64,000 nucleotides of DNA from a virus. The stretch is from the UHGV virus genome UHGV-0112899; one strand, 5' to 3'. The stretch's first letter is position 1; each line of letters starts with the position of its first letter. Shown in pieces: positions 7,972-64,000 of this stretch. Position numbers and translations under genes: made by a program. Below the pieces are notes generated by a model that made no database searches, had not been told where the DNA came from, and worked only from the letters and a program-made list of their open reading frames with translations.

Positions 7972-8302
7972 TCAACTCAGTAGCTTTGTTAACTCCCTTA
8001 ATACCAGGTAGAAGAGTAACAAAAATACTAACGCCAGTATTTGCGTGGTCAACGAGGCGTTCATAAACAGAACAATTAGCTTTAACAATTCGAGAATAAC
8101 GTCCATGTCATTCACACTATTTAATTTTTAATCTACAGCCAGCAAACAATGAAGCTGGCCCCCGCATAAAGATTAATGAAAGTCACTTGTCACCAGTGAG
8201 GGGATTTATGAACCACATCCCCCTGAACTGGTGGACTGTCTGTTTCTCGCATTTCACACCCTGCATACAGTTCCCCCCAGGTTATGACTGTGAGGAACTG
8301 TT

Positions 8303-42437: not shown

Positions 42438-42860
42438 ATGGCAAAGTATTACAGCAAAGAGACTGGTGGTTTCTACGACGACAGACTAAAAGAAGATTAC
42501 GATAAAAACGGTTCATGGCCGTCCGATACTGTACATATACCTGATGACTTATATGATGAATTGTTATCAGGGTATGGCAATGGGAAAATAATAATTGCAA
42601 ATGGCGATGGTTATCCAATGTTATCTGACCCACAACCTATGAGCTTAGAGGATAGAGTCAGCATTGCTGAAAACACCAAAAGTAGTCTTATGAATGATGT
42701 GAGCATAAAAATATCAACGCTTCAGGATGCTGTTGATATGGATATTGCCACTGATGAGGAAATAGAAATGTTGACAAAGTTAAAGAGGTATAGAGTTCTT
42801 CTTAATAGAGTTGACACTTCTGTTGATGCAGATATCTCATGGCCTGAGATGCCTGTATAA
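42438..42860 (+). CDS. tail fibre assembly protein (Tfa-like)
   Basis: 140 aa; MAKYYSKETGGFYDD...DLYDELLSG signature typical of tail fibre assembly chaperones. Confidence 0.65.
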   Translation: MAKYYSKETGGFYDDRLKEDYDKNGSWPSDTVHIPDDLYDELLSGYGNGKIIIANGDGYPMLSDPQPMSLEDRVSIAENTKSSLMNDVSIKISTLQDAVDMDIATDEEIEMLTKLKRYRVLLNRVDTSVDADISWPEMPV

Positions 42861-42903
42861 ACAATCATAACAATCCAATCAGCACTGCTTTTTTGATATT
42901 TCA

Positions 42904-42930
42904 AGCCCTCTTTTGTTGAGGGCTTTATTA
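42904..42930 (+). terminator. rho-independent terminator
   Basis: stem agccctc/gagggct with T-rich loop, followed by tttatt. Confidence 0.55.
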
Positions 42931-43320
42931 GTGAGTGCTTTTGTGACCTTTTTTAGTAATACAATCCTTTGGTACAAAAAAGCCGCCGTCCAGTCAATGA
43001 CGGCGGGCAAAATGAACACTCAGTTAGTTGTATCTGAGAGGGGGGCATTATATTCACTGAATGACGCTTGTGAAGACTCACATGTCATCATTTTGTCCTC
43101 AAGAATCAGCTCACATCTTGCGCATTCAAGCGTATTTCTCTTTAAAGCCGTGTTTGGACCATTTTGTTGATACGCGAATTTGGCATCCTCCACGCTCTGA
43201 GTGACGAGGTTTACGGACCACCGGGCCATCATATGCATCCATTTTGTGTGAATGGCATTTAGTCGGGAAATAACAAACTGGATAAGTTGAAGCCGCGTTA
43301 AACGTCATTTCTGGAGGGGT

Positions 43321-43647
43321 ATGTTTGCAGATTATGAAAATCTGGCTGTAGCAGTCATAACATCCCTGCTGAGTGGAACCGGCGTATTCCTTCTCGGAGT
43401 TAGAGACGGGCGCATTTCTGCGTCACTGCTCAACCTCGCGAGTGAATTGTTTACTGCAGTAACTGCCGGGCTTGCGGGGTTTTGGGTGGCTGATAGCTAT
43501 GAATGGCCGGAAGGCATCATTTACTGCGTTGTTCTGATTGCCAGTAACAACGGAAGTGAAATTTTACAGGGCTTGAAGTCCAGAGCTAGTAACGTCTTGA
43601 ATCTCTTAAGCGTAATAGCGAGTGGGGGAAAAGGTGGAGAGAAGTAA
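43321..43647 (+). CDS. putative holin (LydA-like)
   Basis: 108 aa with three predicted hydrophobic helices; GGAGGGG RBS. Confidence 0.4.
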   Translation: MFADYENLAVAVITSLLSGTGVFLLGVRDGRISASLLNLASELFTAVTAGLAGFWVADSYEWPEGIIYCVVLIASNNGSEILQGLKSRASNVLNLLSVIASGGKGGEK

Positions 43648-44093
43648 TGGGTGACTTTGGAAATTATTTCATTTTTATCATGGCATTTGTTGCCGTTATT
43701 GACCGTTTCTTATTTCGTCGCAAGAGTGTTGATATTTTGAGCATTGGCGAAGCTGTAGTGAAAGAGTCTGCTATAGCGTTTCCCGTGTCGCTTCGCGTTA
43801 AGCGAAGCTGGGTAAGCAATGCACAAATCGAATATTGGTTGCAGGACTTGAAAAATCCATCTGTGGTTATTTCGGGGAAAACAAGACCAGTTGACGCATC
43901 AAAACGCGGTGAGAGAGAAGAATATTTGCTCATCGACACGAAATATCTTGAGCCAGCGAAGTGGGATCTAAAGGTCACATTGACTAACGGTAATTGCCGC
44001 CTGAATCCGCTTTATCGCATTTTCCCTATCAATGACTGCATAGAACGTCAGTTTATGATTGAAAAGTGTGAAGGAGACTGGAATGTCAAATAA
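43647..44093 (+). CDS. membrane protein, possible antiholin (LydB-like)
   Basis: 148 aa with N-terminal hydrophobic helix; TAATG coupling to the holin-like gene. Confidence 0.3.
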   Translation: MGDFGNYFIFIMAFVAVIDRFLFRRKSVDILSIGEAVVKESAIAFPVSLRVKRSWVSNAQIEYWLQDLKNPSVVISGKTRPVDASKRGEREEYLLIDTKYLEPAKWDLKVTLTNGNCRLNPLYRIFPINDCIERQFMIEKCEGDWNVK

Positions 44094-44700
44094 ATCTAAT
44101 TATGTTCTTCTTAATTATGATGAGTTAAACGAAAAGGGGCTGGCAAAACTCGTCAAAGAAATCGGTAAAGGAGGCTACAAGATAGCGAGGGTGATCCCCG
44201 CCAGTAATGGCAGGAAGAAAGACGGGATCATGACGCGCACGTTTACCCTTATCGGAATCGATGAGCAGACGATGGACGTTCAGGTTAATGATACTGGTGA
44301 TATTTCTGGTGTAAAACTGAACGGAAAAATTGTTCCTTTCAAGCCAGTTAAAACGCTGATGGCTTTAGGGCAATCACTGGCTGCTTTATTTAATAAAGGC
44401 GCATCATCATTTCAGAAATCATTGGCGCGTAAGTTAGCTCGTGCGGCGAAAGATATTGATGATGGGAATAAGAAAATAAAAGGCGTTAAGTCCAATGCGC
44501 AGAAACTAGCAGAGGCAAAGGAATCTCGCGATGCGATCCGCGAGGATATTGAAAGGGCCAAAGAAAAATTAAATCAGGTGCAAGGTAATTCAGACCGCGC
44601 AACAAGAGAAACTGAAATCATTAGAACCGAGATGGCGCAGGAACTGGCGAAAACTCGCGTATTGAAAGAAGAAATAGCGCGCCTGGAGGAAGATGCATGA
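44083..44700 (+). CDS. Hdf-like protein (homologous to a DarA-like fragment)
   Basis: 205 aa; coiled-coil segment resembles part of the downstream 641-aa protein; AGGAG RBS. Confidence 0.35.
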   Translation: MSNKSNYVLLNYDELNEKGLAKLVKEIGKGGYKIARVIPASNGRKKDGIMTRTFTLIGIDEQTMDVQVNDTGDISGVKLNGKIVPFKPVKTLMALGQSLAALFNKGASSFQKSLARKLARAAKDIDDGNKKIKGVKSNAQKLAEAKESRDAIREDIERAKEKLNQVQGNSDRATRETEIIRTEMAQELAKTRVLKEEIARLEEDA

Positions 44701-46622
44701 TAAAGAAACCTATTCGAATAAATATCCAGTCCACTTTTGCAGATACGCTCACTGGATATACGCCTAATCGTTGGGTGGCGGAAGATATCACCGAGGATGA
44801 TTTACTTATCGAGCCTGCGACGCTGGAAGATATCGAGCTGGCCTATATGGGCAACGAAATTTTGGTAACTACCAATGAGGCAATGTTCGAAGCTTTAACC
44901 ACAACAAAATTGCGGTTAGCGCAAACAATGCGAGCATTTGTCCGGGCGCTTAATCGCGGCCTGAATGGCACTGACATTGCTGCGGGTACGGATGAGGCAG
45001 GTGAATATGAAGACGGACGTAATAGTATCGGTGGGGCAATCATTGGGCGCGTGCGCCGGGTTGCTAATATCCCTGTTGTAACAGCACAAATACCTCTAAC
45101 CGATGGACAAACGACAAGCATAATTTTCCATTCTCCAACCGCAGACGGCACAAGAATTAAAGGGGATGACGAGCTGGTTGCGTTTCAGTTTCTTCTTAAC
45201 AAAAGAAACGTTACGCATGTTGTTGCGCCAATCGGTGGGCGTGATGTATCTCTGAGCCAGGTGTGTCAGGCGCTTTCTAACCTCATTGAGCGTAACAGTG
45301 CAAAATTCAAAAAAGCAAAGGAGCGCCAGGACAAAATGAAGGCTGATATTGAGGGGTATCTCAATGAAGCCGACAAGCTGGCAGAAGAACGTTCTGTGCT
45401 GATTGAGCAGGTTGAAGACGCACAGCGGGGGCTGGCAGAGAAACGCTCAACACTCAATGATATGCAGAATAAATTAGACGCACAAAAAGCCCTTAACGGG
45501 GAATTGCAGGCTAAGCGCGATAATTTATTGTCAGCTAAGAGCCAAGGAACTAAAGAGCGTGCCTTCAATGATCAACTGCGACACATAAAACATAATCTTG
45601 CTACAGAAGGCCAAACAACGCTGGATAATGGTGCTGTAGTTAAGTATGTCACGTCAGGCAGTGATAGCTTTGTCACGATTGAGGCACCAGAAGGCAATTT
45701 CAGTATTGATGTCAGTGCTGTTAAAGGTGGGAGTTCAGCGGACGCTGCAACCAAATTACTTAAAGCCTATCGTGAACATAATGCTGATCAATACAAAGTG
45801 GATGTGTTGCCGGGCCAGCCTGAGCCAACTGATCAGCCGCAGCCTGAACAGGAGCCACAACCAGCATCACATCCTGATCCCCTGGAGGTTGGTAAATATC
45901 GCTATGCGCTACAATCTCGCCCGGCGGGTGTTGGTGCGGTTCCTGAAGGAAATAAAGCTGTACTTGACCGTCCTGATCAGGCTGATCCGTATTACGAATA
46001 TGCTCGTCACGGAATCATTACGTATGACCGCAAACTGACAGACGAAGAAGTCAGTCAGTACGAATTACGCTATCTGCCTGATGACGATGAACTGAGAGGG
46101 ATGGCGAACGAGCTGGTTGCGTCCAGCATGGTAAAACATATTGATGGCTATGTAGATCTGTTTGGAAGTGACCTGAAAACATTCAAGGCGCAAGTTAAAA
46201 TTCTTTTCCGCAAAGCGTTCCCGAACGTGGCATATCCACTTGGTGATGGGGAGAACCTTTTCATTATGGACGTGTATAACGCCCTTCAAAATCATTCAAG
46301 CGAAGTAAAAACAGATCCTGTAGTTGAGCCAGAATCGCAACCTGCACCAGCACCAGAACAGGAGCCGGAGCCAGAAGAAGCGGGTGAATCAGCAAGCGAA
46401 GCTGACCAGGAAGCAGATAAAGCGCTTGAGTACCTGAAATCCGTTCCGGAGCAGTTCACATCCCGCGATCTGACGGTCATAAGTGCTGAACTTGATCATG
46501 TGCAGGAAGCTGCAAACGCTCTTATCAGTGCTGGTCGATATGACGAGAACGAAGCAACTGTAGGTGCAGCCGTTGACTACCTGATCAATATTCTGGCTGA
46601 AATTCAGCAGGGAGGTGCTTAA
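44697..46622 (+). CDS. DarA-like antirestriction protein
   Basis: 641 aa; size and operon position match the P1 darA operon; no catalytic motif seen. Confidence 0.4.
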   Translation: MIKKPIRINIQSTFADTLTGYTPNRWVAEDITEDDLLIEPATLEDIELAYMGNEILVTTNEAMFEALTTTKLRLAQTMRAFVRALNRGLNGTDIAAGTDEAGEYEDGRNSIGGAIIGRVRRVANIPVVTAQIPLTDGQTTSIIFHSPTADGTRIKGDDELVAFQFLLNKRNVTHVVAPIGGRDVSLSQVCQALSNLIERNSAKFKKAKERQDKMKADIEGYLNEADKLAEERSVLIEQVEDAQRGLAEKRSTLNDMQNKLDAQKALNGELQAKRDNLLSAKSQGTKERAFNDQLRHIKHNLATEGQTTLDNGAVVKYVTSGSDSFVTIEAPEGNFSIDVSAVKGGSSADAATKLLKAYREHNADQYKVDVLPGQPEPTDQPQPEQEPQPASHPDPLEVGKYRYALQSRPAGVGAVPEGNKAVLDRPDQADPYYEYARHGIITYDRKLTDEEVSQYELRYLPDDDELRGMANELVASSMVKHIDGYVDLFGSDLKTFKAQVKILFRKAFPNVAYPLGDGENLFIMDVYNALQNHSSEVKTDPVVEPESQPAPAPEQEPEPEEAGESASEADQEADKALEYLKSVPEQFTSRDLTVISAELDHVQEAANALISAGRYDENEATVGAAVDYLINILAEIQQGGA

Positions 46623-46990
46623 TGGCTATCTCTGTTTTAGAACGCCTGAAATTAGGTAAAGAGCTATCAGATCTAATGCAGGCGCAGAAAACCGCGCCAG
46701 TATTGCAACGCGTCTCAATTGGTAAGCAGATTGTTGATGTGATGCTTAAACTGGGGCTTGGGGCTGCGGCCCAATCAGTATCGGATCCGCAGGCGCAGCC
46801 AGATACTGTTGCAGGTGACATTCCTAAGATAGTGACAGACTTCCTTGGAGGTGCATTCACAAAGTCCACGCAAATGGAATTTATTGATGCGCTACGTGGG
46901 ATCTCAAACTATGTAGGCGAGTTCCTTACGTTGGAACAGGCTAAAGAGCAGACCATAAGCTGGGTGAAAGCCAACGGTTATGCAGGGTAA
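46622..46990 (+). CDS. DdrA-like small protein
   Basis: 122 aa, TAATG-coupled to the DarA-like gene. Confidence 0.35.
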   Translation: MAISVLERLKLGKELSDLMQAQKTAPVLQRVSIGKQIVDVMLKLGLGAAAQSVSDPQAQPDTVAGDIPKIVTDFLGGAFTKSTQMEFIDALRGISNYVGEFLTLEQAKEQTISWVKANGYAG

Positions 46991-47083
46991 TCAAAGGGGC
47001 TGAAATGCCCCTTTCACTTTCCTGTAAGTCCATAAATCACACACTTTTTACACTTCCTGCTTTCTATGTAAGGGGAGTGTATT

Positions 47084-50000
47084 TTGAACAAGTCAGTTAC
47101 TTCCGCGCTATCCGAAGCAGCAGACATTAACAGTGTTATTGCGCTGGTTTCTTCATTAGAGAGGCGAGAAACACGCCAGGGGCGCAGTAGTTACGTAGTC
47201 ACCAGTAAAGGGGCAGAGGTAAAGACGGCTTTTAAGGTCGTTGATGCCAGCAGTCTGATCATTTCGAACAACCTTGACGGTACGATTAATCCGGCCTTCC
47301 CGGAAGAACTCCAACCACGAGATCGTACCCGGCTATCCAGCAAACTCCAGGTTAACCGTATTGCCTCCAATTTACGCCCGGCACAATTAACGGATTCCGG
47401 TATGAGCAGCCACGGAGCGCCGATAGTTGGTCCGGACAACGTTGTTGAATCCGGCAACGGAAGGAGTATGGGTATCTGGCGTGCCTATGAGCAAGGACAG
47501 GCGGATGAGTATCGCCAGTACCTGATCGACCATGCGAAAGAGTTTGGTCTGAATCCTGACGAAATTTCGCAAATGTCTATGCCCGTACTGGTGCGAGAAA
47601 GACTCACAGATGTAGACCGCGCTCAATTTGCCCGCGATTCAAACATTAGCGATCTGCAAGAGATGGCAGCAAGTGAAAAAGCGTATGCGGATGCGCAATT
47701 TCTCACTGAGAGCGTCATGGCGCTATTTAATCCTTCAGATGATGGAAATCTGCTGGCGCGGTCCAATGATGCGTTTATTCGTGCGTTTTTGCGCGAAATT
47801 GGCGATACAGCGACGGCAGGCTTGCTTACTGCCGATGGGCGTCCCACGAAACAGCTTATCGATCGCATCCAGAATGCAATTTTTGCCAAAGCGTACAAGG
47901 ATGAAAGGCTTGTTCGGTTGGTGGCGGAAGAGCCAGATCCGGAAATGCGTAACATCCTTACCGCATTAAATACGGCAGCCAGCGATTTTGCGCAAATGCA
48001 GTCGCTTTCAGGTGATGTTCACCATGACACGGTAACCGGACTGGTAGACGGTATAGAGCAATTGAATGGTCTGGATAAACAGGCTATTGCCGCGCTACAG
48101 GAAGCAATTAACCTTGTTCGTGAAGCAAAAGATAACGGTCAGGCAGTAGAAGAGGTGATCGCACAGCGTGGATTGTTTGGAGATAGCACTCCGGAAGCAG
48201 AAGCGCTTGCTCTGTTTATTGTTGCCAACAACCGAAGCGCTAAGCGAATGGGGGCAGCTTTCAAGAAACTGGCGCAAAAAATTAACGATGAACTTATTCA
48301 CCAGCAACAAGCGTTAGGCGATATGTTCGGCGGCGGAGATGTCGATCTGCGTAGCATTTTATCTGCCGTTTCTGATGAAATTGAGGCTGAGTATGGCGAA
48401 GGTAAAGGGCTTAATTTCGCCATGTTCGAATCGGTTTCGGGAGATGTCGAACCATACATTTCAAAGCTAATTGCTGATGCGACCAGCGTGGAGGACTTGA
48501 TCCGAATCGTGAAGGCGTCAGAAAAAATTAAGGAGTCCGCAAAAAAAATAAAGCGCAATGTATTTTTGGAACTTGGTTTTTATATTCGCAATGTCACCGT
48601 TAATGAGATTAAGGCGTGGGCTAAACGTTATGGATACAGCAACGCTGTGTTAACAACGATGTTATTGTCTTATCAACGCAGCAATTTTTATGCTAACGCA
48701 CTGCGTGACGCGATTGAAAAAGGAGATGAAGCTCCTTCACTCGCAGATGAAAGAAATATTGATTGTGACATTGAAACGTTTTGCAATATGTCAGAAGAAG
48801 GCGTGCCCGCTGAACAATTTATACGTGTTTTACATAATGCAGCAAAACATATTCCTGATGACTTTAGCATTGATGAATTGCGCAATGGTTGTCTTGTTTG
48901 GTTAGGTAACTATTTAAAATCTCCAGCGTCTATTGCAGAGAAAACAGCTTTAAGATTTAGAAAGGAAATGAATAAAGCTGGAAGCGCAGAAGAGATGGTG
49001 CGCATAATCCAAAATACTTTGAAGTTATTCAAAAAGAGCTTGCATAATATCAACGATATTATGGCGGCTGGTAGGAAAATAACAGCCAGCGTCGGAGTTA
49101 GCTCCGAACTAACGGCAGAGGAGATCGCTGATGCGTATATTGAGACACTTGTCAGGCTTAAGGAGATAGTGGAATTAGCAGAGCATTCCTCATATTACGG
49201 AATCAAGGAGCGCGTTGACTTTACTATAGAACAAATCAATAAAGTTAGGTCAAATAAGGAAAAACTCACTGACTACCTTGCTGAGGTTTTGCACCAGAAT
49301 GATCATGGGATTGGATATGATCTGAAAAAAATGCTTGTTTTTAATCTGGACATACCGGAAGACTTGCAAGCAGAATTATATGAAATAGCTTCATTAACAC
49401 GTGGACAAAAAGCCTATCCTAATGCGCTTGAAAATGTAGTACATAAAAAAGTCAGAGCCGCATTTGACATGATTCTTGAATCGTCAAATGTGTCACATGA
49501 CCAGTCTAAGGAATGGAGTCGTGGGATTGCTATTTCTGATGAAGCAGAGCAGTTAAGTGGTCACGATAATGAAACTTTCTCCCGTAAAGCATACAGTATT
49601 CGCGAGACAATTGAAAAAGCCTATATTATTTCAGGAGGGACTTTATCTACATTAAAAAATATTAACCACAAGAACAATGTTCGTGCTTTTGCAAGTCGAA
49701 ATGGGAATATAACAATTGATGCTAATAGTGATCATGAGCGTGTATTATGGCATGAAATAGGTCACCATATAGAACATTCAAATCCCCATCTATTGGAGAG
49801 GGCCAAAGCCTTCATTAAATCAAAAACTAACGGTAAAGTTTCTTATCATAATATTGGTAGCCGTGGCAGTGCTGAGTATTTGGTGCGAACCGACCTAAGT
49901 CATGGATATATGTCTAAAATTTATATGGAAAATACGGTAAGTTCTGTCAGCGGCAGATTTATATCAAAGCCACCTGCATTAAGCAATTGCAGGGCGACTG

Positions 50001-50125
50001 AGATTTTTTCTATGGCCTTGCAGATGTATGCCGATCCTGAGCAGGCGACTAACTCTGTATTAAACAATGACGGCGTGCTGGAATTTTTCTTGGGATGTAT
50101 GAAGGAGTTGCAAAATGAAGTATAG
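47084..50125 (+). CDS. DdrB-like large protein with HExxH motif
   Basis: 1013 aa; HEIGHH at about nt 49751-49768; operon position matches ddrB; TTG start. Confidence 0.4.
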   Translation: MNKSVTSALSEAADINSVIALVSSLERRETRQGRSSYVVTSKGAEVKTAFKVVDASSLIISNNLDGTINPAFPEELQPRDRTRLSSKLQVNRIASNLRPAQLTDSGMSSHGAPIVGPDNVVESGNGRSMGIWRAYEQGQADEYRQYLIDHAKEFGLNPDEISQMSMPVLVRERLTDVDRAQFARDSNISDLQEMAASEKAYADAQFLTESVMALFNPSDDGNLLARSNDAFIRAFLREIGDTATAGLLTADGRPTKQLIDRIQNAIFAKAYKDERLVRLVAEEPDPEMRNILTALNTAASDFAQMQSLSGDVHHDTVTGLVDGIEQLNGLDKQAIAALQEAINLVREAKDNGQAVEEVIAQRGLFGDSTPEAEALALFIVANNRSAKRMGAAFKKLAQKINDELIHQQQALGDMFGGGDVDLRSILSAVSDEIEAEYGEGKGLNFAMFESVSGDVEPYISKLIADATSVEDLIRIVKASEKIKESAKKIKRNVFLELGFYIRNVTVNEIKAWAKRYGYSNAVLTTMLLSYQRSNFYANALRDAIEKGDEAPSLADERNIDCDIETFCNMSEEGVPAEQFIRVLHNAAKHIPDDFSIDELRNGCLVWLGNYLKSPASIAEKTALRFRKEMNKAGSAEEMVRIIQNTLKLFKKSLHNINDIMAAGRKITASVGVSSELTAEEIADAYIETLVRLKEIVELAEHSSYYGIKERVDFTIEQINKVRSNKEKLTDYLAEVLHQNDHGIGYDLKKMLVFNLDIPEDLQAELYEIASLTRGQKAYPNALENVVHKKVRAAFDMILESSNVSHDQSKEWSRGIAISDEAEQLSGHDNETFSRKAYSIRETIEKAYIISGGTLSTLKNINHKNNVRAFASRNGNITIDANSDHERVLWHEIGHHIEHSNPHLLERAKAFIKSKTNGKVSYHNIGSRGSAEYLVRTDLSHGYMSKIYMENTVSSVSGRFISKPPALSNCRATEIFSMALQMYADPEQATNSVLNNDGVLEFFLGCMKELQNEV

Positions 50126-50408
50126 CATTGTGAGTCCCGCTGGGATTAGAGGGATTGTTGAATGCTCTGATGACGGCACATTGCGTATATTTGAAGGCGA
50201 TATTTCGGAAGAAAATATTGCGCAAGATTTACGCTTTATCAACACAAATTCCGCAATGGGGATCGTGAATACCATTCATGCCGATGGGGTGTTTGTTCTG
50301 CGGAGCCTGGAAACTGTTGGCTGGGAGGTTGAGTGGCCAGAGGTGGAAGGAGATCCTGACGACGAAGACGATACTGGCGAATCATATCAAGACATTGATG
50401 TGAATTGA
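50115..50408 (+). CDS. small acidic protein
   Basis: 97 aa with acidic C-terminus DPDDEDDTGESYQDIDVN; AGGAG RBS; overlaps the previous gene end. Confidence 0.5.
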   Translation: MKYSIVSPAGIRGIVECSDDGTLRIFEGDISEENIAQDLRFINTNSAMGIVNTIHADGVFVLRSLETVGWEVEWPEVEGDPDDEDDTGESYQDIDVN

Positions 50409-50421
50409 TATGATTGATAAT

Positions 50422-50444
50422 CCCGCCGTCAGGCGGGTTTTTTT
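50422..50444 (+). terminator. rho-independent terminator
   Basis: stem cccgcc/ggcggg with gtca loop followed by T7. Confidence 0.65.
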
Positions 50445-50706
50445 AGCGTGGTGTAAGAATAAATTCAGGATGCTCTCCAGCAAGCAATAACAGGTACTCA
50501 AATTCACCAGCCATAAGGCGTCTCGGTTTATTTCTATCTTCTTTGAATTGCCAAGCCCGGAGTTGATACCCCATTTTGTGGGCTAACTCCGTTTGCGTTA
50601 GCCCCATTCGCTGGCGGATTTCAATTATGGTTTCCGGGGTGTTTGGTGGGAGTTGTTTCACAATATGCCCTTTGCCAATGCTGTGATTCGCAACGAAGTA
50701 TATCAT
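50443..50706 (-). CDS. XRE-family HTH protein
   Basis: 87 aa; IIEIRQRMGLTQTELAHKMG helix-turn-helix. Confidence 0.55.
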   Translation of the reverse strand: MIYFVANHSIGKGHIVKQLPPNTPETIIEIRQRMGLTQTELAHKMGYQLRAWQFKEDRNKPRRLMAGEFEYLLLLAGEHPEFILTPR

Positions 50707-50718
50707 CGTTGAATCGAT

Positions 50719-51023
50719 TCACAGAGCTGCGCCGAACAGACCGCAGCATGGCATCCCTTCATCACAGTACCTGGCCCATTCTTTTTGGCATTCTTCTGTT
50801 TGCGCGTATTGGCTTAACGCGTCATCCAGCATATCCCAGGCCTTATAGGAATCCTCTGCAACGCTAAACAAAGTCCTGCCTTCCCGGCTTAGAATTTGCA
50901 GATTGTAAATGTTTTCATTGCTCAGACATGCGTGGCTGATATGCATGTAAACCGACCATGCAGGAACTCGATTTTTGATAGCAAGTTGGTGTAATTTGGA
51001 ATTAATTAAAGAGCTTTTCATGG
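50719..51023 (-). CDS. hypothetical protein upstream of the HTH gene
   Basis: 101 aa from ATG 51023 with GGAG RBS; 12-nt gap to the HTH gene. Confidence 0.4.
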
Positions 51024-51204
51024 GATTTCTCCGCAGCAAAGTGGTCAACTTTTTCAATCTTAATACGCACAATGTGCATATGCAAGTTTTATTCTTCACT
51101 TTGTTACGAGAGGGGCCAGCCAATATTTCTAGTTGAAAAGATCCATCATCAAAAATCACATACTGATTATGCTGCCGCAAACTGAAAACATTTCGCGGTG
51201 ACTC

Positions 51205-52890
51205 ATGGCAACGAAAGACAAAAACAAAGGCTTTCTGTCGGCATTGAAGAAAGCCTTCAACAGTGGCGATGTCACGCCTGCTGATCCGGTCGTTTTTACA
51301 AGCGGTCATAGTGTCGTTGCGCGTTCTGGTCTGTCTGCTTTACGTCCGGGTATCCTGGGTGGCAATAGCGATGGCATGACAAGCGCGGCAGATACAGTAT
51401 CAATTTCGGCAGAACTGCCCGGCGACCGCCTGCAAAAATACAACATACTGGAGACGATGGCGAAAAGTCCGACTATCTCCACAGCATTAAACATTCACAT
51501 TGCGCATTCTCTGGCTCCATCAAAAAAAACAGGCCTCGCATTTATTCTCGCTCCGAAAAATGGGGCAGATAAGGAGGCTGTAAGTCGATGTGAGGAATTG
51601 ACCGCTGATTTAAGCTCAATGATTAATGATGGCCTGCCATCGTGGGCCATGATCATGGCTATTTTCGGTGTGTCGTATATCCGTCCATATGCAGAGCAAG
51701 GGAAGGGGATAACTGGAATTGAGTCGAGCTATTACACGCTCCCTCATTTCGTTCAGGAGTTTTATCGCGGTAGCCAACTTGTCGGATTCAGCGGTGATTA
51801 CATTCTGGATACGCATACTTTGCGCAGAGTTATAACCGAACCATGGAATCTGGTTTCCATGAAAAACCCGTACTGGACGCCTCAGCATAATGTAATGCCA
51901 GTAACTTACGGCACTAAAGGCTATTCCTTGCTTAGTGAACAGCAGGACAAGCCGTTAATGGAGACGCAGAACTACGGTACGTCATTTCTTGAATACAGTT
52001 ATGAACCCTACCTGAATTTATGTGCCGCGCTTGCTGCGCTGAAAGCAACGCGAAACAACGCTGCAAAAATTGATCGCCTGATTGCACTCACAACGAACAC
52101 GATAGATCCGGTAAATGCGGCGAATTATACGCGCGGGGTCAGCCAGGCACTGAAGCGTCATAGCGACCTCGTAGCGCAACGGTCGATTAATTCTAATGCT
52201 CTCCCATCTGTACTTAACCATCTGATACCCGTCATGGGGGATGGGAAGAACGGGATCACCATTGATACGCAATCTATACCCGCAGATATCAGTGGTATCG
52301 AAGACGTTATGTTTCATCTCCGACAGCTCGCGGCAAGCCTCGGTATTGACGCAACAATGCTTGGCTGGGCTGATCAGATGAGTGGTGGACTTGGAGAAGG
52401 CGGTTGGCAGCAAACAGCTATCCAGGCCGCCTTACGCGCGAACTGGATCAGACAGGCCGCCCAGCGGACTATTTATCGGCTTCATGACATTCACCTCGCT
52501 TATAAATACGGGAAGGTTTACACCGAAAAAAACCGTCCTTATGACGTGCAATTCAACTCAATGAACACAGCTATCCAGGAAGAGGAAAACCGAGAGCTGG
52601 ATGCGCGCGCCAACTTCGTAGCTGTCATCTCGCAAATAATGGACCAGATCCAGAACAACCCGAAACTGGCGGGTAGCGACGCGTTTATGCGTTATCTGTT
52701 CACCGAACAGCTTTGTATCGACGATGACACTCTCAACGTAATGATCAAAGAGTTTAAAGCGAATGAATCAGAGCAAAACAACGAGCATGGTATGTACGAA
52801 TCCGCGCCGTTGTCGTCCGGTGACGATCCGGAAAACTGGACGCAAGAACAATTAATCAACTTTGCAAAATTTGTGATGAGCAATAATTAA
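51205..52890 (+). CDS. putative portal protein
   Basis: 561 aa without Walker motifs, followed by a protease/scaffold-like gene; assignment by context. Confidence 0.35.
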   Translation: MATKDKNKGFLSALKKAFNSGDVTPADPVVFTSGHSVVARSGLSALRPGILGGNSDGMTSAADTVSISAELPGDRLQKYNILETMAKSPTISTALNIHIAHSLAPSKKTGLAFILAPKNGADKEAVSRCEELTADLSSMINDGLPSWAMIMAIFGVSYIRPYAEQGKGITGIESSYYTLPHFVQEFYRGSQLVGFSGDYILDTHTLRRVITEPWNLVSMKNPYWTPQHNVMPVTYGTKGYSLLSEQQDKPLMETQNYGTSFLEYSYEPYLNLCAALAALKATRNNAAKIDRLIALTTNTIDPVNAANYTRGVSQALKRHSDLVAQRSINSNALPSVLNHLIPVMGDGKNGITIDTQSIPADISGIEDVMFHLRQLAASLGIDATMLGWADQMSGGLGEGGWQQTAIQAALRANWIRQAAQRTIYRLHDIHLAYKYGKVYTEKNRPYDVQFNSMNTAIQEEENRELDARANFVAVISQIMDQIQNNPKLAGSDAFMRYLFTEQLCIDDDTLNVMIKEFKANESEQNNEHGMYESAPLSSGDDPENWTQEQLINFAKFVMSNN

Positions 52891-57928: not shown

Positions 57929-60900
57929 TTGGACAAAATAATTGATTCAATTAGCCAGGCCACCAGCATTGGGGCGCTGATTGAAATTGTTAGTCGGTTG
58001 CATAAACCGCGAGCTGTAGTGACCTTTGGCGTTAAGAAAGTCGATGGCGTCAGTATTCAGAAAACACGCCGGGCAGCAAACAACGCCGCAGTAAATCTTC
58101 TTAATTCCCTTCCGCCTGGCTTCGATGGGGCGAAATTAACTGACGAACAGCGCCAGATTCTTGCCGGGTATACCGGTGAAGGCGGCCTGACAGATGGTGA
58201 GGGCAGCCAATACGAATACTATACGCCACAGTTTATGGCAGAAGGTATATGGGATCTCTTCGGCGACTACGGTATTGATAGCGGTCACGTACTGGAACCG
58301 TCAGCAGGCACAGGTATTTTCCAGGAGACAAAACGGCAGGGCATGATAATGACCAGCGCCGAACTGTCTCCGATCTCCGGTCGAATAAACCAGCTTTTGC
58401 ACCCGGAAGATGATGTGAATATCGGGGCGTTTGAGGCGCTGGCGGCGAAAGATGCAATGTATGACCACGCAGTTGGTAACGTACCGTTTGGCGAAGGGCG
58501 TTCCGGCGTCGCCGGGCTTGATCCGGCATATGCAAACGAGAAGAACGTTGGCAATTATTTTGTGCTGCGCACGATCGACAAGGTTAAGCCTGGTGGACTA
58601 ATTGTATTGGTGGTGCCGAATGGCATGACCGATGGTACGAAATACAAAAAATTGCGCGATAAAGTCAGCCGTAAAGCGGAATTTTTGGGCGCGCATCGTA
58701 TGCCTTCTGGTACGTTCAGCGAATCCGGTACAGATACCGTGGTGGACGTATGGGTATTGCGTAAACACCCGGAAGCCTTTCTGGAGATGATCCCCGATAC
58801 GGATGATTCGACGCTCAAATCGGCAAACGTCCTTTGGGATACCTTCCTCAAAGGAAAATGGTTTACAACCGAAGGGAAGCGATTTGTTTACGGCGATATG
58901 GAGCGTACCAGCTTCCGCAATACCCTGGTGGTGAAAAAGGACGGTCGTGTATCCAATGAGTCGATGAAAACCGCTCTATCGCGCCGCTTTGAAAGCCGCA
59001 TTAATTGGGATTTGCTCGGCGTAACTACTCAGGCATGGCAGGGCGCGAAAGTGGGCGATAAACGCCTTGTAGGCGGCATCTGGCATGAGTTTGATGGCCT
59101 GAAATGGGTCAAGGACACGACAACCAAATCCTCCGCGCTTGATGTAAGCCGATATGGTGTTTCGACGTTTGGCGATCTGCAGATCGCGTTTCAGTCAACA
59201 AATGGCATTCTGGCGTTGTCATGGGACCAGATATCGGCGATCGCGTCCGACTATCCATCGGTTATCAGTGATGAAGTAGCGGCAATGATTCGCTTTGCTG
59301 GCAAGCAGAGAGAAAAAGACAGAGAACGCGTTATGCGCGGCGCACTGATAGGGCAGTTGATCAACAAGGCGCTTGATAAGCGTAATCTGGGGGAAAATGT
59401 TGATGATGAACTTGCTGATGCCGCGCGCCTGGCGGAAGCCGAAATTGCGAAGTATGGTCCGCCGCACGCGATTAAGCTGAATGGGATTGCTGAAGCTGGC
59501 GCTAAAAACTGGATGACTTTCACTGGCAACGTGAAACAGGACGGCTCTGCTTCTGACCTCCTTGCTGGACGACTTGATGTAACGGATGGTGCTGCCGGTA
59601 TTGACTTTACACGCCCGGAACAAGTTGTAACCCACCTTTTCAGTGACGTGGCACTTAATCCAATCACACTGGACGATTTTCGTGAGGCGTTTGCTGGCGA
59701 ACTGCCAGGAGACGACGATGCTGCTCTGGAATACCTGGCGAAATTTGATGATATCGCTATTGATGGGTATGGCTGCCTGCTGCCGATGGACCGCGCCACC
59801 AGCGGCGATATTGCAACCAAAACAGCATTGCTGGTGGGCTGGCGTGATGCGTCAACAGGTGAGCAGAAAGCGAACTTTGAGCGTCAGTTGGCGAAAATCG
59901 AAGAGAAACGCATTTTTACGCCGCTAAATAAAGTCACCGTTAATCTGAACGCCCGCTGGCTGGATCGCCGCTTGATAAAAGAGTTCCTGGCAGAGCAGGG
60001 CTATGACGAGTTTAAGTATACAGAACCCGACCTTAAGGTTGAGGACGGCATTCTGGTATCTCCGGACGATTACGAAGGTAAGGACGGGGTATTTACTGGC
60101 TATCAACTACGAACCGTAAACGGCAAAAACGGGAATGAGTTCAAGAAGGCCAACAATAAAGACGGCTTCCTGAACCAGTTAGAAAACTACCTGAACGGCA
60201 TTAAACCGCGTGGGCAGAACGCTAACGAGTACCTGGATAAGATTGCTCAACTGGAAATTAGCTTCAACGACTGGTTACGCACTCACCCGCAGGCTGATCA
60301 GATAGCCCGCGACTATAACGACGCATTTAATGGCTTCATCCCGTTTACGCATTCTGACGCACCGCTTGGCCTGGAGGGGATTAGTGGGAAGCGCATTCCT
60401 CTGACTTATCAGAATGAAGAAGTTCGTCGCTTATCAGAAGATGGGCGCGGCATCATGGGATTTGGCACCGGGCTGGGTAAAACCACGACCGCGCTTGCGC
60501 TTGAAGCGTATAACTTCGAAACAGGTCGCACTAAACGCACGTGTATTGTTGTTCCGAAGGCGGTTTATCAGAACTGGTATCACGAGGCACAGAGTTTCTA
60601 CAGTGCTGATGCCTTCGCCAATATGATGTTTATCGGTTTGGATGAAGTTCGTGATGACAGCGGAAATATTCTGACCGCGCCGGTGCTTGATGAAAATGGC
60701 GAACCACGCCTCGACAGTAACGGGCTGCCTCTTACCCGAAATGTTGTGAAAGAGTCCGCCAGTGCCGTTATCGTTCAGCGCATGAACATGATCCCGTCGT
60801 CAAATTGGCGAACGGTCATCATGACAAAAGAGCAATTCGCGTCTATCCCGCTACGAGAAGAAACCATTGAGGAAAACTCACAGCAAGCGGTCTTTAATGC

Positions 60901-63900
60901 TGTGGAAATGGGGCGTCTTGACCTGGCATCTGGCAAACACCGTGACGCGCAGAAGAAGAACAAAATTAAGGACCAGGCCGCAAATACCGGTACAACGAAG
61001 AAGCAGAATATCCCGTACTTTGAGGATATGAACTTCGATAGCGTGATAGCCGACGAAGGGCATAACTACCGCAACTCCTTTAGCGCCGGGCGCGAAGCGG
61101 GGCAACTGGCATATTTGCCTAACCCGGCAGTATCCAAAATGGCTCGTGATATGGCTGTAAAAGCTGCGTACATGATGAAACGCAACAACGGGCGTGGTGT
61201 GGTTATGCTGACGGCAACACCGCTGGTGAACAGCCCGATTGATGCTTTCAACATGCTGTCTACTGTCATTCCGCAGGAAGAGTGGATGCGCATGGGCATC
61301 ATTACGCCGGATGATTTCGTTCGCGTGTTCGGTAAAACAGCCACAGTTCAGGTTCAGAAAATTTCCGGTGAGGTGGAAGAGAAGCAGGGGCTGGTGGGCT
61401 TCCAGAACCTGGATGGTCTGCGTGGTATTTTCCATCGCTGGACTACTCTGAAGACTGCTGCGGACGTCGGGGCGACGGTAAAAATCCCTGATATTGTCGA
61501 GAATACCTTGCAGATCCCGATGACAGGAGAGCAAGAGGCCATTTACGAAGAACTTCGTAAGCGTGCACAGGAGTTAAGTAGTAAAGATGCGCTGACGGTC
61601 GATGAAAACGGGCATATCACAAACGAAAAACCGGATGATTTCATCTTCTCCATCATCCGCGACATGGATAAGGTTGCTATAGATCCTGATCTGTATGCCA
61701 GTGCGATTACATTCCAGTTCCCCGTTGAGCTTGCAGACAAGGTAAAAGCTATTGCTGATGCCCTGCCAAAAGTAGCTGGCGGTAAAGTGGCAGATGATGC
61801 GGACGAGGCCGAAGAAGATGGCGCTGGTGGGCTGGTCAGTACGCGTACCAGCAAGGTAGTGAAGACCACCTTTAGCGAACATCCGTCGCATGTTGAAATA
61901 CGTGCTGGCATTGAACTGGAAGCTGAAATACTGAAGGCCATTGCGGCTGCCGGTATTGATATGCAGCAGGTATCACACCCCATCCCGCCGAAGTATGCCG
62001 CGCTGATCGAAAACCTTCGTGAAGGTCTGAAGAACGGTAAACAAATCGTCTTCATTGATGAAAAAGCCCAGCACCAGAAGCTGCGCCGTATTATTGCCAG
62101 TGCACTGCAAATGCCGGAGCAGGAGATAGGCATTATCAATGCGACGACAGTTAGCCAGGCTGGCGGCGTCAAGCTGAAGAAGGTGAATAAGCCGACTGAA
62201 CCTACGCCAAATAAAAACGGTGAATACAAAGAAGGCGCATGGGAAACCTACTACAGCAAACTTGCCCAATATGAGGATTATCTCTCAGCTAAAAATGATG
62301 CTGGCCTTGAGGGCATGGAAGGTATTGCCGCCGACTATAACGAAGGTCGCACGCGCATCATAATCTGTAACAAGAAGGCTGAAGTAGGTATTAACTTGCA
62401 CATCGGGACAACCGATATCCACCATCTGACACTACCCTGGACTCCTGCCAGTATCGACCAACGTAATGGGCGCGGCGCTCGGGTAGGCTCACCACAAGAA
62501 AAGGTCAATGTTCACTACTATTGTGGCAAAGGCACATTTGATGACTTCCGTCTGGATACGCTGAAACGTAAGAAGGACTGGATCAATATGGTGATGACCT
62601 CCGACATGTCAGAGATCGCCAATGGTGATGCGGATGACGCAGATGAACGCGCCATTATGCTGGCGGCAAATCCGGAAGAACGCCGTGCAATCATGAGTCG
62701 TCAGGCGCAAGAGCGTGAAGAACGTCTGAAACTGAAAGCCCTACGCGAAGCCAATAATGCTCTCGATAACTACCTGAAAGCGGCGAATGCTGCCGGGAAA
62801 GATATCGGCATGATGGAGACAGAACTGAAAAGCGCGATGGAGCAGGTAGAGCATTACCAGCGCAATCTTGACGACCTGATTAAAGCGGGGACGAACAGGA
62901 ACGGGCAGAAATATGTTCTGGAACAGTTGCGAGACTACAGAAAACGTGTGCGGGAGCTACGCTTTGCGATCACCAGAGCTAAAGACGCTGACACCGTTAT
63001 GAAACGTTCTCGTGGTGATCTGGAACGTGCGATTAAAGCCGGGGTTCTGGAGCTTGATGCCGATGTATTGCAGAACCCACAGGAGTATGTACGCACTGAG
63101 AAAAATATCTTGTTGCACAAGGACAGCCATTATCGCGCGATCATCGATGAGAATCACAATACGACAGCAATTGTTCGTGTTACCGCCATTGATGCGGAAA
63201 GGGGCGGGTGTACGTGCCGCATATCCTGGCTGGATGTGGCTAGTCGTTACTCTCGTTCTCCGGGTACGGCATTATTTTTGCCCTTTAACCTGATAATTGA
63301 ATCGGTAACCTTTGAAGAGGGAGTTGCAGAATCGCGTGAAACAGCTGCACGTGGTGTTCAATGCCACCAGCTATCAACAACACTTACGCGCGATCAGTTC
63401 TATGATGCTATTCGCAATGGGGTAATGAATGTCACTGCCGGGAAGCCTGGTAGAGTATGGGGCGGTGGTTCAGCTATTAAATACTGGGCTTATCGCACCG
63501 ATGATGGTCAGATTGCACTGTCATCGGCTTATGATGGCGTAATAGGTCAAAAAATCGGGCGAGCATCGGATATAGCGCCTGAGCGGTGGATTTACCCTGA
63601 TGGCAACGATGAGGCGCTGAAGCGTGAAGTGGCAAAAATACAAGCCAGTGATAACCCGCTGAATATCGTGGACGGCGAGGGATTCCTCCAGGCATTGTAT
63701 GGGTATGATTACATCCAGGGAATGCAGGCATGGGGCGCACAGGCAACGATGGATGATGTTGTCCAGGAGTTCGAAAACTGGATGGCTGGGCGTGGTCTGT
63801 CAGGTCGTTCGCTTAATAAAGTCACTTCTGAAGATATTCTTAGCTTGTTCCGCAAACCGTCCGGAGAAGGTCTGGAATCATTCTGGAGGACCGTGCTGGC

Positions 63901-64000
63901 ATACCGTTTATTCCAGGGCAGAATGAAAGCCTTTAGCAATATCGATGATATTGAACGGATGTTTAATCAGGTCAAGATCGCGAAAATTAAGACGAAGATC
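57929..64000 (+). CDS. giant N6-methyltransferase plus SF2 helicase fusion protein (DarB-like), 3' end beyond window
   Basis: single open frame over 2000 codons; EPSAGTG and NVPFG methyltransferase motifs; GTGLGKTT, DEGH and QRNGRGAR helicase motifs; TTG start after GAGGGGG is tentative. Confidence 0.6.
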   Translation, partial: MDKIIDSISQATSIGALIEIVSRLHKPRAVVTFGVKKVDGVSIQKTRRAANNAAVNLLNSLPPGFDGAKLTDEQRQILAGYTGEGGLTDGEGSQYEYYTPQFMAEGIWDLFGDYGIDSGHVLEPSAGTGIFQETKRQGMIMTSAELSPISGRINQLLHPEDDVNIGAFEALAAKDAMYDHAVGNVPFGEGRSGVAGLDPAYANEKNVGNYFVLRTIDKVKPGGLIVLVVPNGMTDGTKYKKLRDKVSRKAEFLGAHRMPSGTFSESGTDTVVDVWVLRKHPEAFLEMIPDTDDSTLKSANVLWDTFLKGKWFTTEGKRFVYGDMERTSFRNTLVVKKDGRVSNESMKTALSRRFESRINWDLLGVTTQAWQGAKVGDKRLVGGIWHEFDGLKWVKDTTTKSSALDVSRYGVSTFGDLQIAFQSTNGILALSWDQISAIASDYPSVISDEVAAMIRFAGKQREKDRERVMRGALIGQLINKALDKRNLGENVDDELADAARLAEAEIAKYGPPHAIKLNGIAEAGAKNWMTFTGNVKQDGSASDLLAGRLDVTDGAAGIDFTRPEQVVTHLFSDVALNPITLDDFREAFAGELPGDDDAALEYLAKFDDIAIDGYGCLLPMDRATSGDIATKTALLVGWRDASTGEQKANFERQLAKIEEKRIFTPLNKVTVNLNARWLDRRLIKEFLAEQGYDEFKYTEPDLKVEDGILVSPDDYEGKDGVFTGYQLRTVNGKNGNEFKKANNKDGFLNQLENYLNGIKPRGQNANEYLDKIAQLEISFNDWLRTHPQADQIARDYNDAFNGFIPFTHSDAPLGLEGISGKRIPLTYQNEEVRRLSEDGRGIMGFGTGLGKTTTALALEAYNFETGRTKRTCIVVPKAVYQNWYHEAQSFYSADAFANMMFIGLDEVRDDSGNILTAPVLDENGEPRLDSNGLPLTRNVVKESASAVIVQRMNMIPSSNWRTVIMTKEQFASIPLREETIEENSQQAVFNAVEMGRLDLASGKHRDAQKKNKIKDQAANTGTTKKQNIPYFEDMNFDSVIADEGHNYRNSFSAGREAGQLAYLPNPAVSKMARDMAVKAAYMMKRNNGRGVVMLTATPLVNSPIDAFNMLSTVIPQEEWMRMGIITPDDFVRVFGKTATVQVQKISGEVEEKQGLVGFQNLDGLRGIFHRWTTLKTAADVGATVKIPDIVENTLQIPMTGEQEAIYEELRKRAQELSSKDALTVDENGHITNEKPDDFIFSIIRDMDKVAIDPDLYASAITFQFPVELADKVKAIADALPKVAGGKVADDADEAEEDGAGGLVSTRTSKVVKTTFSEHPSHVEIRAGIELEAEILKAIAAAGIDMQQVSHPIPPKYAALIENLREGLKNGKQIVFIDEKAQHQKLRRIIASALQMPEQEIGIINATTVSQAGGVKLKKVNKPTEPTPNKNGEYKEGAWETYYSKLAQYEDYLSAKNDAGLEGMEGIAADYNEGRTRIIICNKKAEVGINLHIGTTDIHHLTLPWTPASIDQRNGRGARVGSPQEKVNVHYYCGKGTFDDFRLDTLKRKKDWINMVMTSDMSEIANGDADDADERAIMLAANPEERRAIMSRQAQEREERLKLKALREANNALDNYLKAANAAGKDIGMMETELKSAMEQVEHYQRNLDDLIKAGTNRNGQKYVLEQLRDYRKRVRELRFAITRAKDADTVMKRSRGDLERAIKAGVLELDADVLQNPQEYVRTEKNILLHKDSHYRAIIDENHNTTAIVRVTAIDAERGGCTCRISWLDVASRYSRSPGTALFLPFNLIIESVTFEEGVAESRETAARGVQCHQLSTTLTRDQFYDAIRNGVMNVTAGKPGRVWGGGSAIKYWAYRTDDGQIALSSAYDGVIGQKIGRASDIAPERWIYPDGNDEALKREVAKIQASDNPLNIVDGEGFLQALYGYDYIQGMQAWGAQATMDDVVQEFENWMAGRGLSGRSLNKVTSEDILSLFRKPSGEGLESFWRTVLAYRLFQGRMKAFSNIDDIERMFNQVKIAKIKTKI

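Follow-up and report, generated by a model that had tools for sequence, protein, structure and literature searches.

A late lysis and antirestriction operon of the P1 dar type in a D6-like phage-plasmid, with a predicted DdrB peptidase and a linked acidic protein

In the viral genome UHGV-0112899, a 64,000-nucleotide (nt) stretch that we refer to as the window, positions 43,321 to 50,408 carry seven open reading frames (ORFs) on the plus strand, encoding products of 108, 148, 213 (205 from an internal ATG), 641, 122, 1013 and 97 amino acids (aa). The homologous products of phage P1, in matching order, are 109, 147, 203, 639, 121, 995 and 102 aa long, and the gene order lydA-lydB-hdf-darA-ddrA-ddrB-hxr agrees with the annotation of P1 and, as far as ddrB, with that of the phage-plasmid D6. 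A preliminary description, made from the letters alone, had matched the first six genes to P1 lydA through ddrB by size and order; the six ORFs, and the seventh that it listed after them, are confirmed. BLASTP against the P1 proteins is positive for all seven (E values from 1e-14 to 0, 34-44% identity), and the significant homologues found for each by profile searches and BLASTP exclude chance ORFs. Genes overlap by 1 to 11 nt at five of the six junctions. The exception is ddrA-ddrB, where a 93-nt gap contains a hairpin, so the translational coupling previously ascribed to all six genes does not extend to this junction. Directly after the 97-aa gene, a terminator scan identified an intrinsic terminator at 50422-50444 (plus strand; CCCGCC-GTCA-GGCGGG followed by T7, fold -13.1 kcal/mol). 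Together with the overlapping genes, this argues for a single transcription unit running from lydA to the 97-aa gene.

D6 is a megablast match to the window (86.8% identity over 43266-48417), and megablast against PLSDB matched 120 plasmids of E. coli, Salmonella and Shigella, 119 of which are predicted to be non-mobilizable. The genes flanking the operon are those of P1 and D6 (tail fibre, portal [prt], pro and repL). These matches and neighbours place the window within a D6-like, P1-type phage-plasmid. We therefore read the region, with a probability of roughly 90% on the sequence evidence, as the late lysis and antirestriction "dar" operon of such an element, closed by the terminator at 50422-50444. 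The dar system is a known one, with annotation in both P1 and D6, and most of our findings confirm it. What is added is modest: a correction to the label of P1 Hxr, a linkage between the DdrB peptidase and an acidic partner gene, and natural deletion variants.

The operon opens with lysis genes. The lydA homologue (43321..43647, like the rest of the operon on the plus strand) encodes a 108-aa putative holin with 41% identity to P1 LydA (BLASTP, E = 2e-23) and 93.5% to D6 LydA. It matches the PHROG holin profile at 1e-38 and the Pfam LydA holin model weakly, at 20.5 bits, under the cut-off of 28.4. As in P1 LydA there are two hydrophobic segments, with Kyte-Doolittle peaks at residues 9 and 39. 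The start of the lydB homologue (43647..44093) overlaps the lydA stop by 1 nt. Its 148-aa product, a putative LydA antagonist or antiholin, matches Pfam LydB (1.5e-24) and the PHROG lysis-determining protein (4e-68), and is 34% identical to P1 LydB (BLASTP, 6e-29) and 94% to D6 LydB. A gene for a small two-segment membrane protein followed by a LydB-family gene is the holin-antiholin layout. The proposal that such a pair heads a Dar-like antirestriction operon is thus borne out by homology to P1 and D6 and by the LydB, DarA, holin, Hdf-like and DdrA-like profiles.

Three genes for predicted head proteins follow. The hdf ORF opens at a TTG at 44059 (213 aa), and the alignment with D6 Hdf begins at residue 9 of this reading, that is, at the ATG at 44083. 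From this ATG the gene (44083..44700) encodes 205 aa and overlaps lydB by 11 nt. The product matches Pfam DarA_N (7e-18) and the PHROG Hdf-like profile (3e-72), with 40% identity to P1 Hdf (BLASTP, 1e-29) and 80% to D6 Hdf. The darA homologue (44697..46622, 641 aa), encoding a predicted internal head and antirestriction protein, matches the NCBIfam equivalog anti_RE_DarA ("antirestriction phage head protein DarA") at 1154 bits against a cut-off of 350, as well as Pfam DarA_N (7e-40), which thus occurs in both Hdf and DarA, and DarA_C (2e-19). Identity is 41% to P1 DarA (BLASTP, 2e-144) and 82% to D6 DarA. The ddrA homologue (46622..46990, 122 aa) matches the PHROG DdrA-like profile (2e-47) and is 34% identical to P1 DdrA (BLASTP, 5e-21) and 87% to D6 DdrA. 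The Pfam matches to LydB, DarA_N, DarA_C and ddrB-ParB are all over their cut-offs.

The largest gene, the ddrB homologue (47084..50125, 1013 aa), has a TTG start with a strong Shine-Dalgarno sequence, AAGGGGAG, ahead of it. Its product is 44% identical to P1 DdrB from end to end (BLASTP, E = 0), matches PHROG 2299 over its full length (1516 bits), is 97.6% identical to the 454-aa DdrB of D6, and finds full-length tblastn matches in P1-like phages. In a comparison with P1 by 50-residue windows, aa 50-450 show about 56-84% identity, aa 450-875 about 18-32%, and the stretch from aa 876 onward about 41-56%. Three parts make up DdrB: an N-terminal module that contains a ParB/Srx-like domain, a helical middle that is divergent and evolves fast, and a predicted zincin metallopeptidase at the C-terminus. 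The DdrB-type ParB/sulfiredoxin-superfamily domain spans aa 42-173 (47207..47602; Pfam ddrB-ParB, 1e-41), and its arginine motif, ESGNGR, is identical in P1; this "DdrB-like ParB" domain was defined by Iyer et al. (2017; PMC5512222). The zincin-like domain spans aa 780-1013 (49421..50122), and the sequence HEIGHH at aa 890-895 (49751..49768) is, by conservation, its predicted zinc-binding and catalytic HExxH motif. The N-terminal ParB module is elsewhere joined to InPase, PBECR2 or lytic transglycosylase domains in proteins of up to about 1500 aa (for example P0038, P0107, P0113 and P0095). The HExGH domain, when present in DdrB homologues, stays C-terminal, and such domain swapping fits the "polyvalent protein" picture. 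The P1 ORF "iddB", antisense within ddrB, also gave a tblastn match, which we put down to conservation of ddrB on the other strand and do not count as a gene.

The 97-aa gene (50115..50408) overlaps the end of ddrB by 11 nt and has its own GGAG Shine-Dalgarno sequence. Its product has a predicted isoelectric point (pI) of 4.05 and a net charge of -18, and its last 22 residues include 11 acidic and no basic ones, which agrees with the gene with a strongly acidic C-terminus that the preliminary description had placed over the ddrB end. The gene was not recognised there as what, on sequence similarity, it is: the counterpart of P1 hxr (41% identity to P1 Hxr; BLASTP, 1e-14). D6 has no counterpart. 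The Hxr family is small, with 13 representatives among 1.84 billion proteins in an exhaustive HMMER search, and common to its members are a GWxVxWP motif, an acidic tail and (I/V)N at the C-terminus. The predicted model of the 97-aa product has a beta-rich core and a disordered acidic tail. One further match to the Hxr profile, in five stretches of a 2616-aa repetitive and apparently cell-surface protein (P0135), was judged a repeat-driven coincidence and left unused. A word-indexed homologue search gave four matches with the 97-aa protein and two with the C-terminal fragment of DdrB; the homologue sets were better drawn by the full-length DdrB query and the exhaustive HMMER search.

Comparison with D6-like elements shows that the latter part of ddrB and hxr vary as a block. 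Homology between the window and D6 breaks off at 48417, at about DdrB residue 445, the end of the well-conserved N-terminal module, and restarts at 51153. The 2.7-kb segment between (48431..51152), which holds the middle and peptidase parts of ddrB, the hxr-like gene and two minus-strand genes, is absent from D6, where a DUF4145 gene and orf23 stand in its place; plasmid pEC361_3 has a clean deletion of the segment. Among 5426 complete E. coli genomes, the 5' half of D6-type ddrB is found in 99, always on plasmids, and the segment at 99% identity or more in only 6. This distribution indicates that gain or loss takes in the peptidase half and hxr jointly, and that natural elements can do without them. 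Moreover, the stretch from lydA to ddrB is closest to pEC361_3 (about 94-95%) and not to the six segment-bearing plasmids, which makes the operon a mosaic formed by recombination. P1-type phage-plasmids, the D6-like among them, carry Dar capsid-delivered antirestriction behind a holin/antiholin pair, with a DdrB that ends in a predicted metallopeptidase. The D6-like phage-plasmids, as natural variants with or without the DdrB peptidase half and hxr, offer a ready comparison for the role of that half.

The same linkage is seen more widely. We sampled 12 ddrB loci with the peptidase (the window together with L002, L012, L003-L006, L008 and L015-L018), namely those of the window, P1, Cronobacter phage JK004 and nine contigs from Klebsiella, Enterobacter, Leclercia, Edwardsiella and metagenomes. 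In all 12, a gene of 90-121 aa overlaps or abuts the ddrB stop, and the 12 products have a pI of 4.05-4.33 and a net charge of -11 to -21. Of the ParB-containing ddrB loci that lack the peptidase, three are informative (D6, pEC361_3 and a Vibrio DdrB that carries an InPase domain), and none has such a gene; the fourth peptidase-less locus (L019, also with an InPase domain) stops at a contig edge and is uninformative. The small acidic proteins fall into at least two groups, the Hxr type, including distant members with a GWxVxWP-like motif, and a group with a DGRGxPM motif. A comparison of the two families by hhalign gave a probability of homology of 0.6%, so they are treated as positional analogues only. 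Though no proof, this linkage suggests that it is the DdrB peptidase half which the acidic protein serves.

Three competing explanations were considered. The HExxH motif arises by chance in long proteins, no peptidase model of Pfam or NCBIfam matches the DdrB C-terminus, and the peptidase activity of DdrB proteins is a prediction throughout; HEIGHH might accordingly be a coincidence in a domain that is no peptidase. A Foldseek search of the domain model against the PDB gave no significant match either, and a search of the full-length DdrB sequence against PDB chains returned nothing real. Conservation makes a coincidence most improbable. P1 DdrB has HELGHH at aa 872; P1 and the long DdrB variants checked individually retain the longer motif LWHExGHHxE(Y/F/H)SNP; across a 28-sequence alignment the G, H, H and E of the motif never vary and its first H and E hardly do; and 69 of the 120 best homologues have HExGH at a distance of 103-134 residues from their C-terminus. 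In addition, the AlphaFold2 model of aa 780-1013 (predicted local distance difference test score 94.9, predicted template modeling score 0.91) has a zincin fold, with a mixed sheet and an active-site helix. On this model the domain is a predicted zincin whose shape is closest to the M34 or lethal-factor type. The likeness to M34-type zincins (the Pro-Pro endopeptidases PPEP-2 and PPEP-3 and anthrax lethal factor) and to MtfA, at 11-15% sequence identity, is one of fold and not of family membership, and Pro-Pro specificity has no support in DdrB. The preliminary description had taken HEIGHH as a possible metalloprotease signature, and the motif conservation and the model uphold this. The metallopeptidase reading is already known: the P1 record (NC_005856) calls DdrB a "possible metallopeptidase", one phage record labels ddrB a "putative metallopeptidase", and Iyer et al. 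(2017; PMC5512222) described the C-terminal metallopeptidase (MPTase) of P1 DdrB and proposed autoprocessing of DdrB to the 76-kDa form found in heads. Their polyvalent-protein MPTase domains are C-terminal, carry HExxH, are virion-delivered and are fused to the DdrB-type ParB domain; P1 DdrB is a named example there and the window protein a further member, the autoprocessing role being a proposal in that work. For the acidic gene, the P1 annotation offers "possible repressor; homolog of Xre", on the ground that Hxr aa 23-80 are 28% identical to the Xre repressor, and the name was copied into later gene tables. A repressor of the Xre type would have a helix-turn-helix (HTH) domain; no HTH profile matches either the 97-aa product or P1 Hxr, even at permissive thresholds, and the beta-rich prediction with its floppy acidic tail is no HTH fold. 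We consider a repressor function very improbable: the 97-aa protein and Hxr are probably not repressors, and the "Xre homologue" label of P1 Hxr, spread through many annotations, looks wrong.

Could the 97-aa product, for which the preliminary description suggested a DNA mimic or chaperone, instead be a DNA-mimic antirestriction protein like Ocr or ArdA? It is very acidic, as are all 12 positional counterparts, and its gene sits within an antirestriction operon. Because in the model its charge is gathered in a short, floppy tail and not on a rigid DNA-shaped surface, the mimic version is less likely. Moreover, structure comparison of the model matched no known protein, DNA mimics included, and the P1 virion proteome paper (PMC9024508) does not name Hxr in its main text, nor in the table there that lists the proteins detected. 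Loss of hxr jointly with the DdrB peptidase half, and not independently, is a further point against a mimic, which we regard as unlikely. A dedicated zincin partner (an inhibitor, chaperone or cofactor) that times cleavage during head assembly is a tentative but possible role for the acidic protein at the ddrB stop. If it holds, P1-like phage-plasmids have a conserved module of peptidase and acidic partner, the partner position being filled by at least two families without detectable sequence similarity, and the partner role would account for the joint loss of partner and peptidase half in most D6-like elements. That peptidase and small acidic protein occur as a steady pair offers a concrete hypothesis on the role of DdrB processing.

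Several points weigh against the operon and partner readings. The functions are all carried over from P1 homologues at 34-44% protein identity. A consensus scan for the P1-type late promoter (AAGTNACTT, 4 nt, TANNNT) found none upstream of lydA. The third zinc ligand of the DdrB zincin is represented by candidates only, the invariant E931 and E973 (E152 and E194 of the modelled fragment). The tie between Hxr and the peptidase is one of genetic linkage only, and no acidic gene stands next to the peptidase of this type from Xanthomonas phage Rb1, a protein that lacks the ParB module. An Hxr-like domain fused to the Rb1 peptidase-only protein was looked for, and none is there. Most D6-like phage-plasmids have a DdrB cut after about residue 450 and no hxr, so the peptidase half and Hxr would be either dispensable or narrow in role.

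How the operon might work can be drawn from P1, where dar, a late operon, encodes the LydA holin and its antagonist LydB as well and has roles in antirestriction and head morphogenesis (PMC9025707). There, Hdf and DarA are incorporated early, the order in which Dar proteins are loaded has been described, and the Dar proteins exit the head with the DNA and shield it from type I restriction (PMC12810830). DdrB, DdrA, DarA and Hdf are all detected in P1 virions (PMC9024508). In a CRISPR interference screen of P1 in a laboratory host, the dar-operon genes and hxr were non-essential, lydB alone being scored essential (PMC10695390). By analogy, the window LydA would act as the holin and LydB would delay it. 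Hdf and DarA would enter the procapsid first, setting head size, and would be needed for the loading of DdrA and DdrB and then of DarB and Ulx, and the internal head proteins would leave the head along with the DNA and guard it from type I restriction enzymes. The DdrB peptidase would most likely cleave DdrB itself or a neighbour during head assembly, in line with the P1 proposal of a packaged fragment of about 76 kDa. Our best guess for the Hxr counterpart is a role alongside the DdrB peptidase half, such as that of a chaperone or an inhibitor.

The window also contains a homologue of darB, the unlinked partner gene, which along with the operon makes the Dar system complete. A tblastn search with D6 DarB located it at 57929..64000 (plus strand), 94.7% identical over aa 1-2014. 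From 57833 onward the frame has no stop before the window ends, so that the first approximately 2014 aa fall inside. In D6, ulx follows darB; the window ends inside darB, and the ulx position would fall beyond it.

Against P1 (NC_005856, P1_gp027 to gp021), the window has seven homologous genes in a common order, with near-equal sizes and overlapping junctions; the ParB-middle-peptidase layout of DdrB and its HExGHH motif are shared, and darB is present in both. The proteins are nonetheless only 34-44% identical, and the ddrA-ddrB gap is 93 nt with a hairpin in the window and 12 nt in P1. Downstream of the operon lie an XRE-type gene pair in the window and isaB and IS1 in P1, and the window differs further in having no match to the P1 late-promoter consensus ahead of lydA. 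The likeness to D6 (NC_050154) is closer: orf30-orf25, annotated "similar to P1 lydA ... ddrB", are 80-97% identical from lydA to the N-terminal half of ddrB, the ddrA-ddrB gap is alike (93-94 nt), and the flanking prt, pro and repL are common to both. D6 differs in that its DdrB stops at 454 aa, without the peptidase domain or hxr.

With regard to expression signals, P1 LPdar, the Lpa-dependent late promoter upstream of lydA, reads AAGTTACTT, 4 nt, TACCAT. Upstream of lydA the window has AAGTTGAAG-CCGC-GTTAAA, with four mismatches to LPdar in the 9-mer. D6 deviates too, and the missing match says little on membership of the dar operon. Consensus late-promoter matches across the window are not above chance, and a sigma-70 promoter scan was likewise at chance level. 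The sole perfect P1 late-promoter pattern in the window (AAGTGACTT, 4 nt, TAATCT) is at 8170-8188 on the minus strand and may, judging from the pattern, mark a late operon elsewhere in the phage. The hairpin in the ddrA-ddrB gap (46993..47014, plus strand) consists of AAAGGGGC-TGAAAT-GCCCCTTT followed by a weak T tract; with a fold of -14.8 kcal/mol (z = -3.8), it could be an attenuator or an mRNA-stabilising element. The ddrA-ddrB junction (46991-47083 in the window) is an insertion hotspot in related phage-plasmids, where locus L003 has GerE and SSB genes, L005 a peptidase M15 gene and L006 a five-gene DnaB block on the opposite strand; the window has the stable hairpin only.

The variable segment includes, convergent with the operon and outside it, an 87-aa XRE-family HTH gene (50443..50706, minus strand), which matches a PHROG transcriptional repressor (4e-6) and, weakly, Pfam HTH_3 and MqsA; plasmid records annotate it as an XRE family regulator. 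Ahead of it on the minus strand is a 196-aa ORF (the pair lies within 50443-51309), for which no family was found. A related plasmid annotates a shorter, 100-aa counterpart, and the 196-aa reading overlaps the start of the portal gene. The layout and the weak MqsA/HipB-type matches suggest a toxin-antitoxin-like or regulatory pair.

Upstream of lydA, the window also lacks the lydC gene of P1, and from 42860-43320 the Cin invertase gene and the invertible tail-fibre C-segment (S'/U') are missing, both of which stand upstream of lydA in P1 and are retained in D6. With their loss the phage is probably unable to switch tail-fibre type. A cin remnant of 24 aa (43092-43163, minus strand) is 71% identical to D6 Cin aa 11-34, and a minus-strand terminator-like hairpin remains at 42983-43006.

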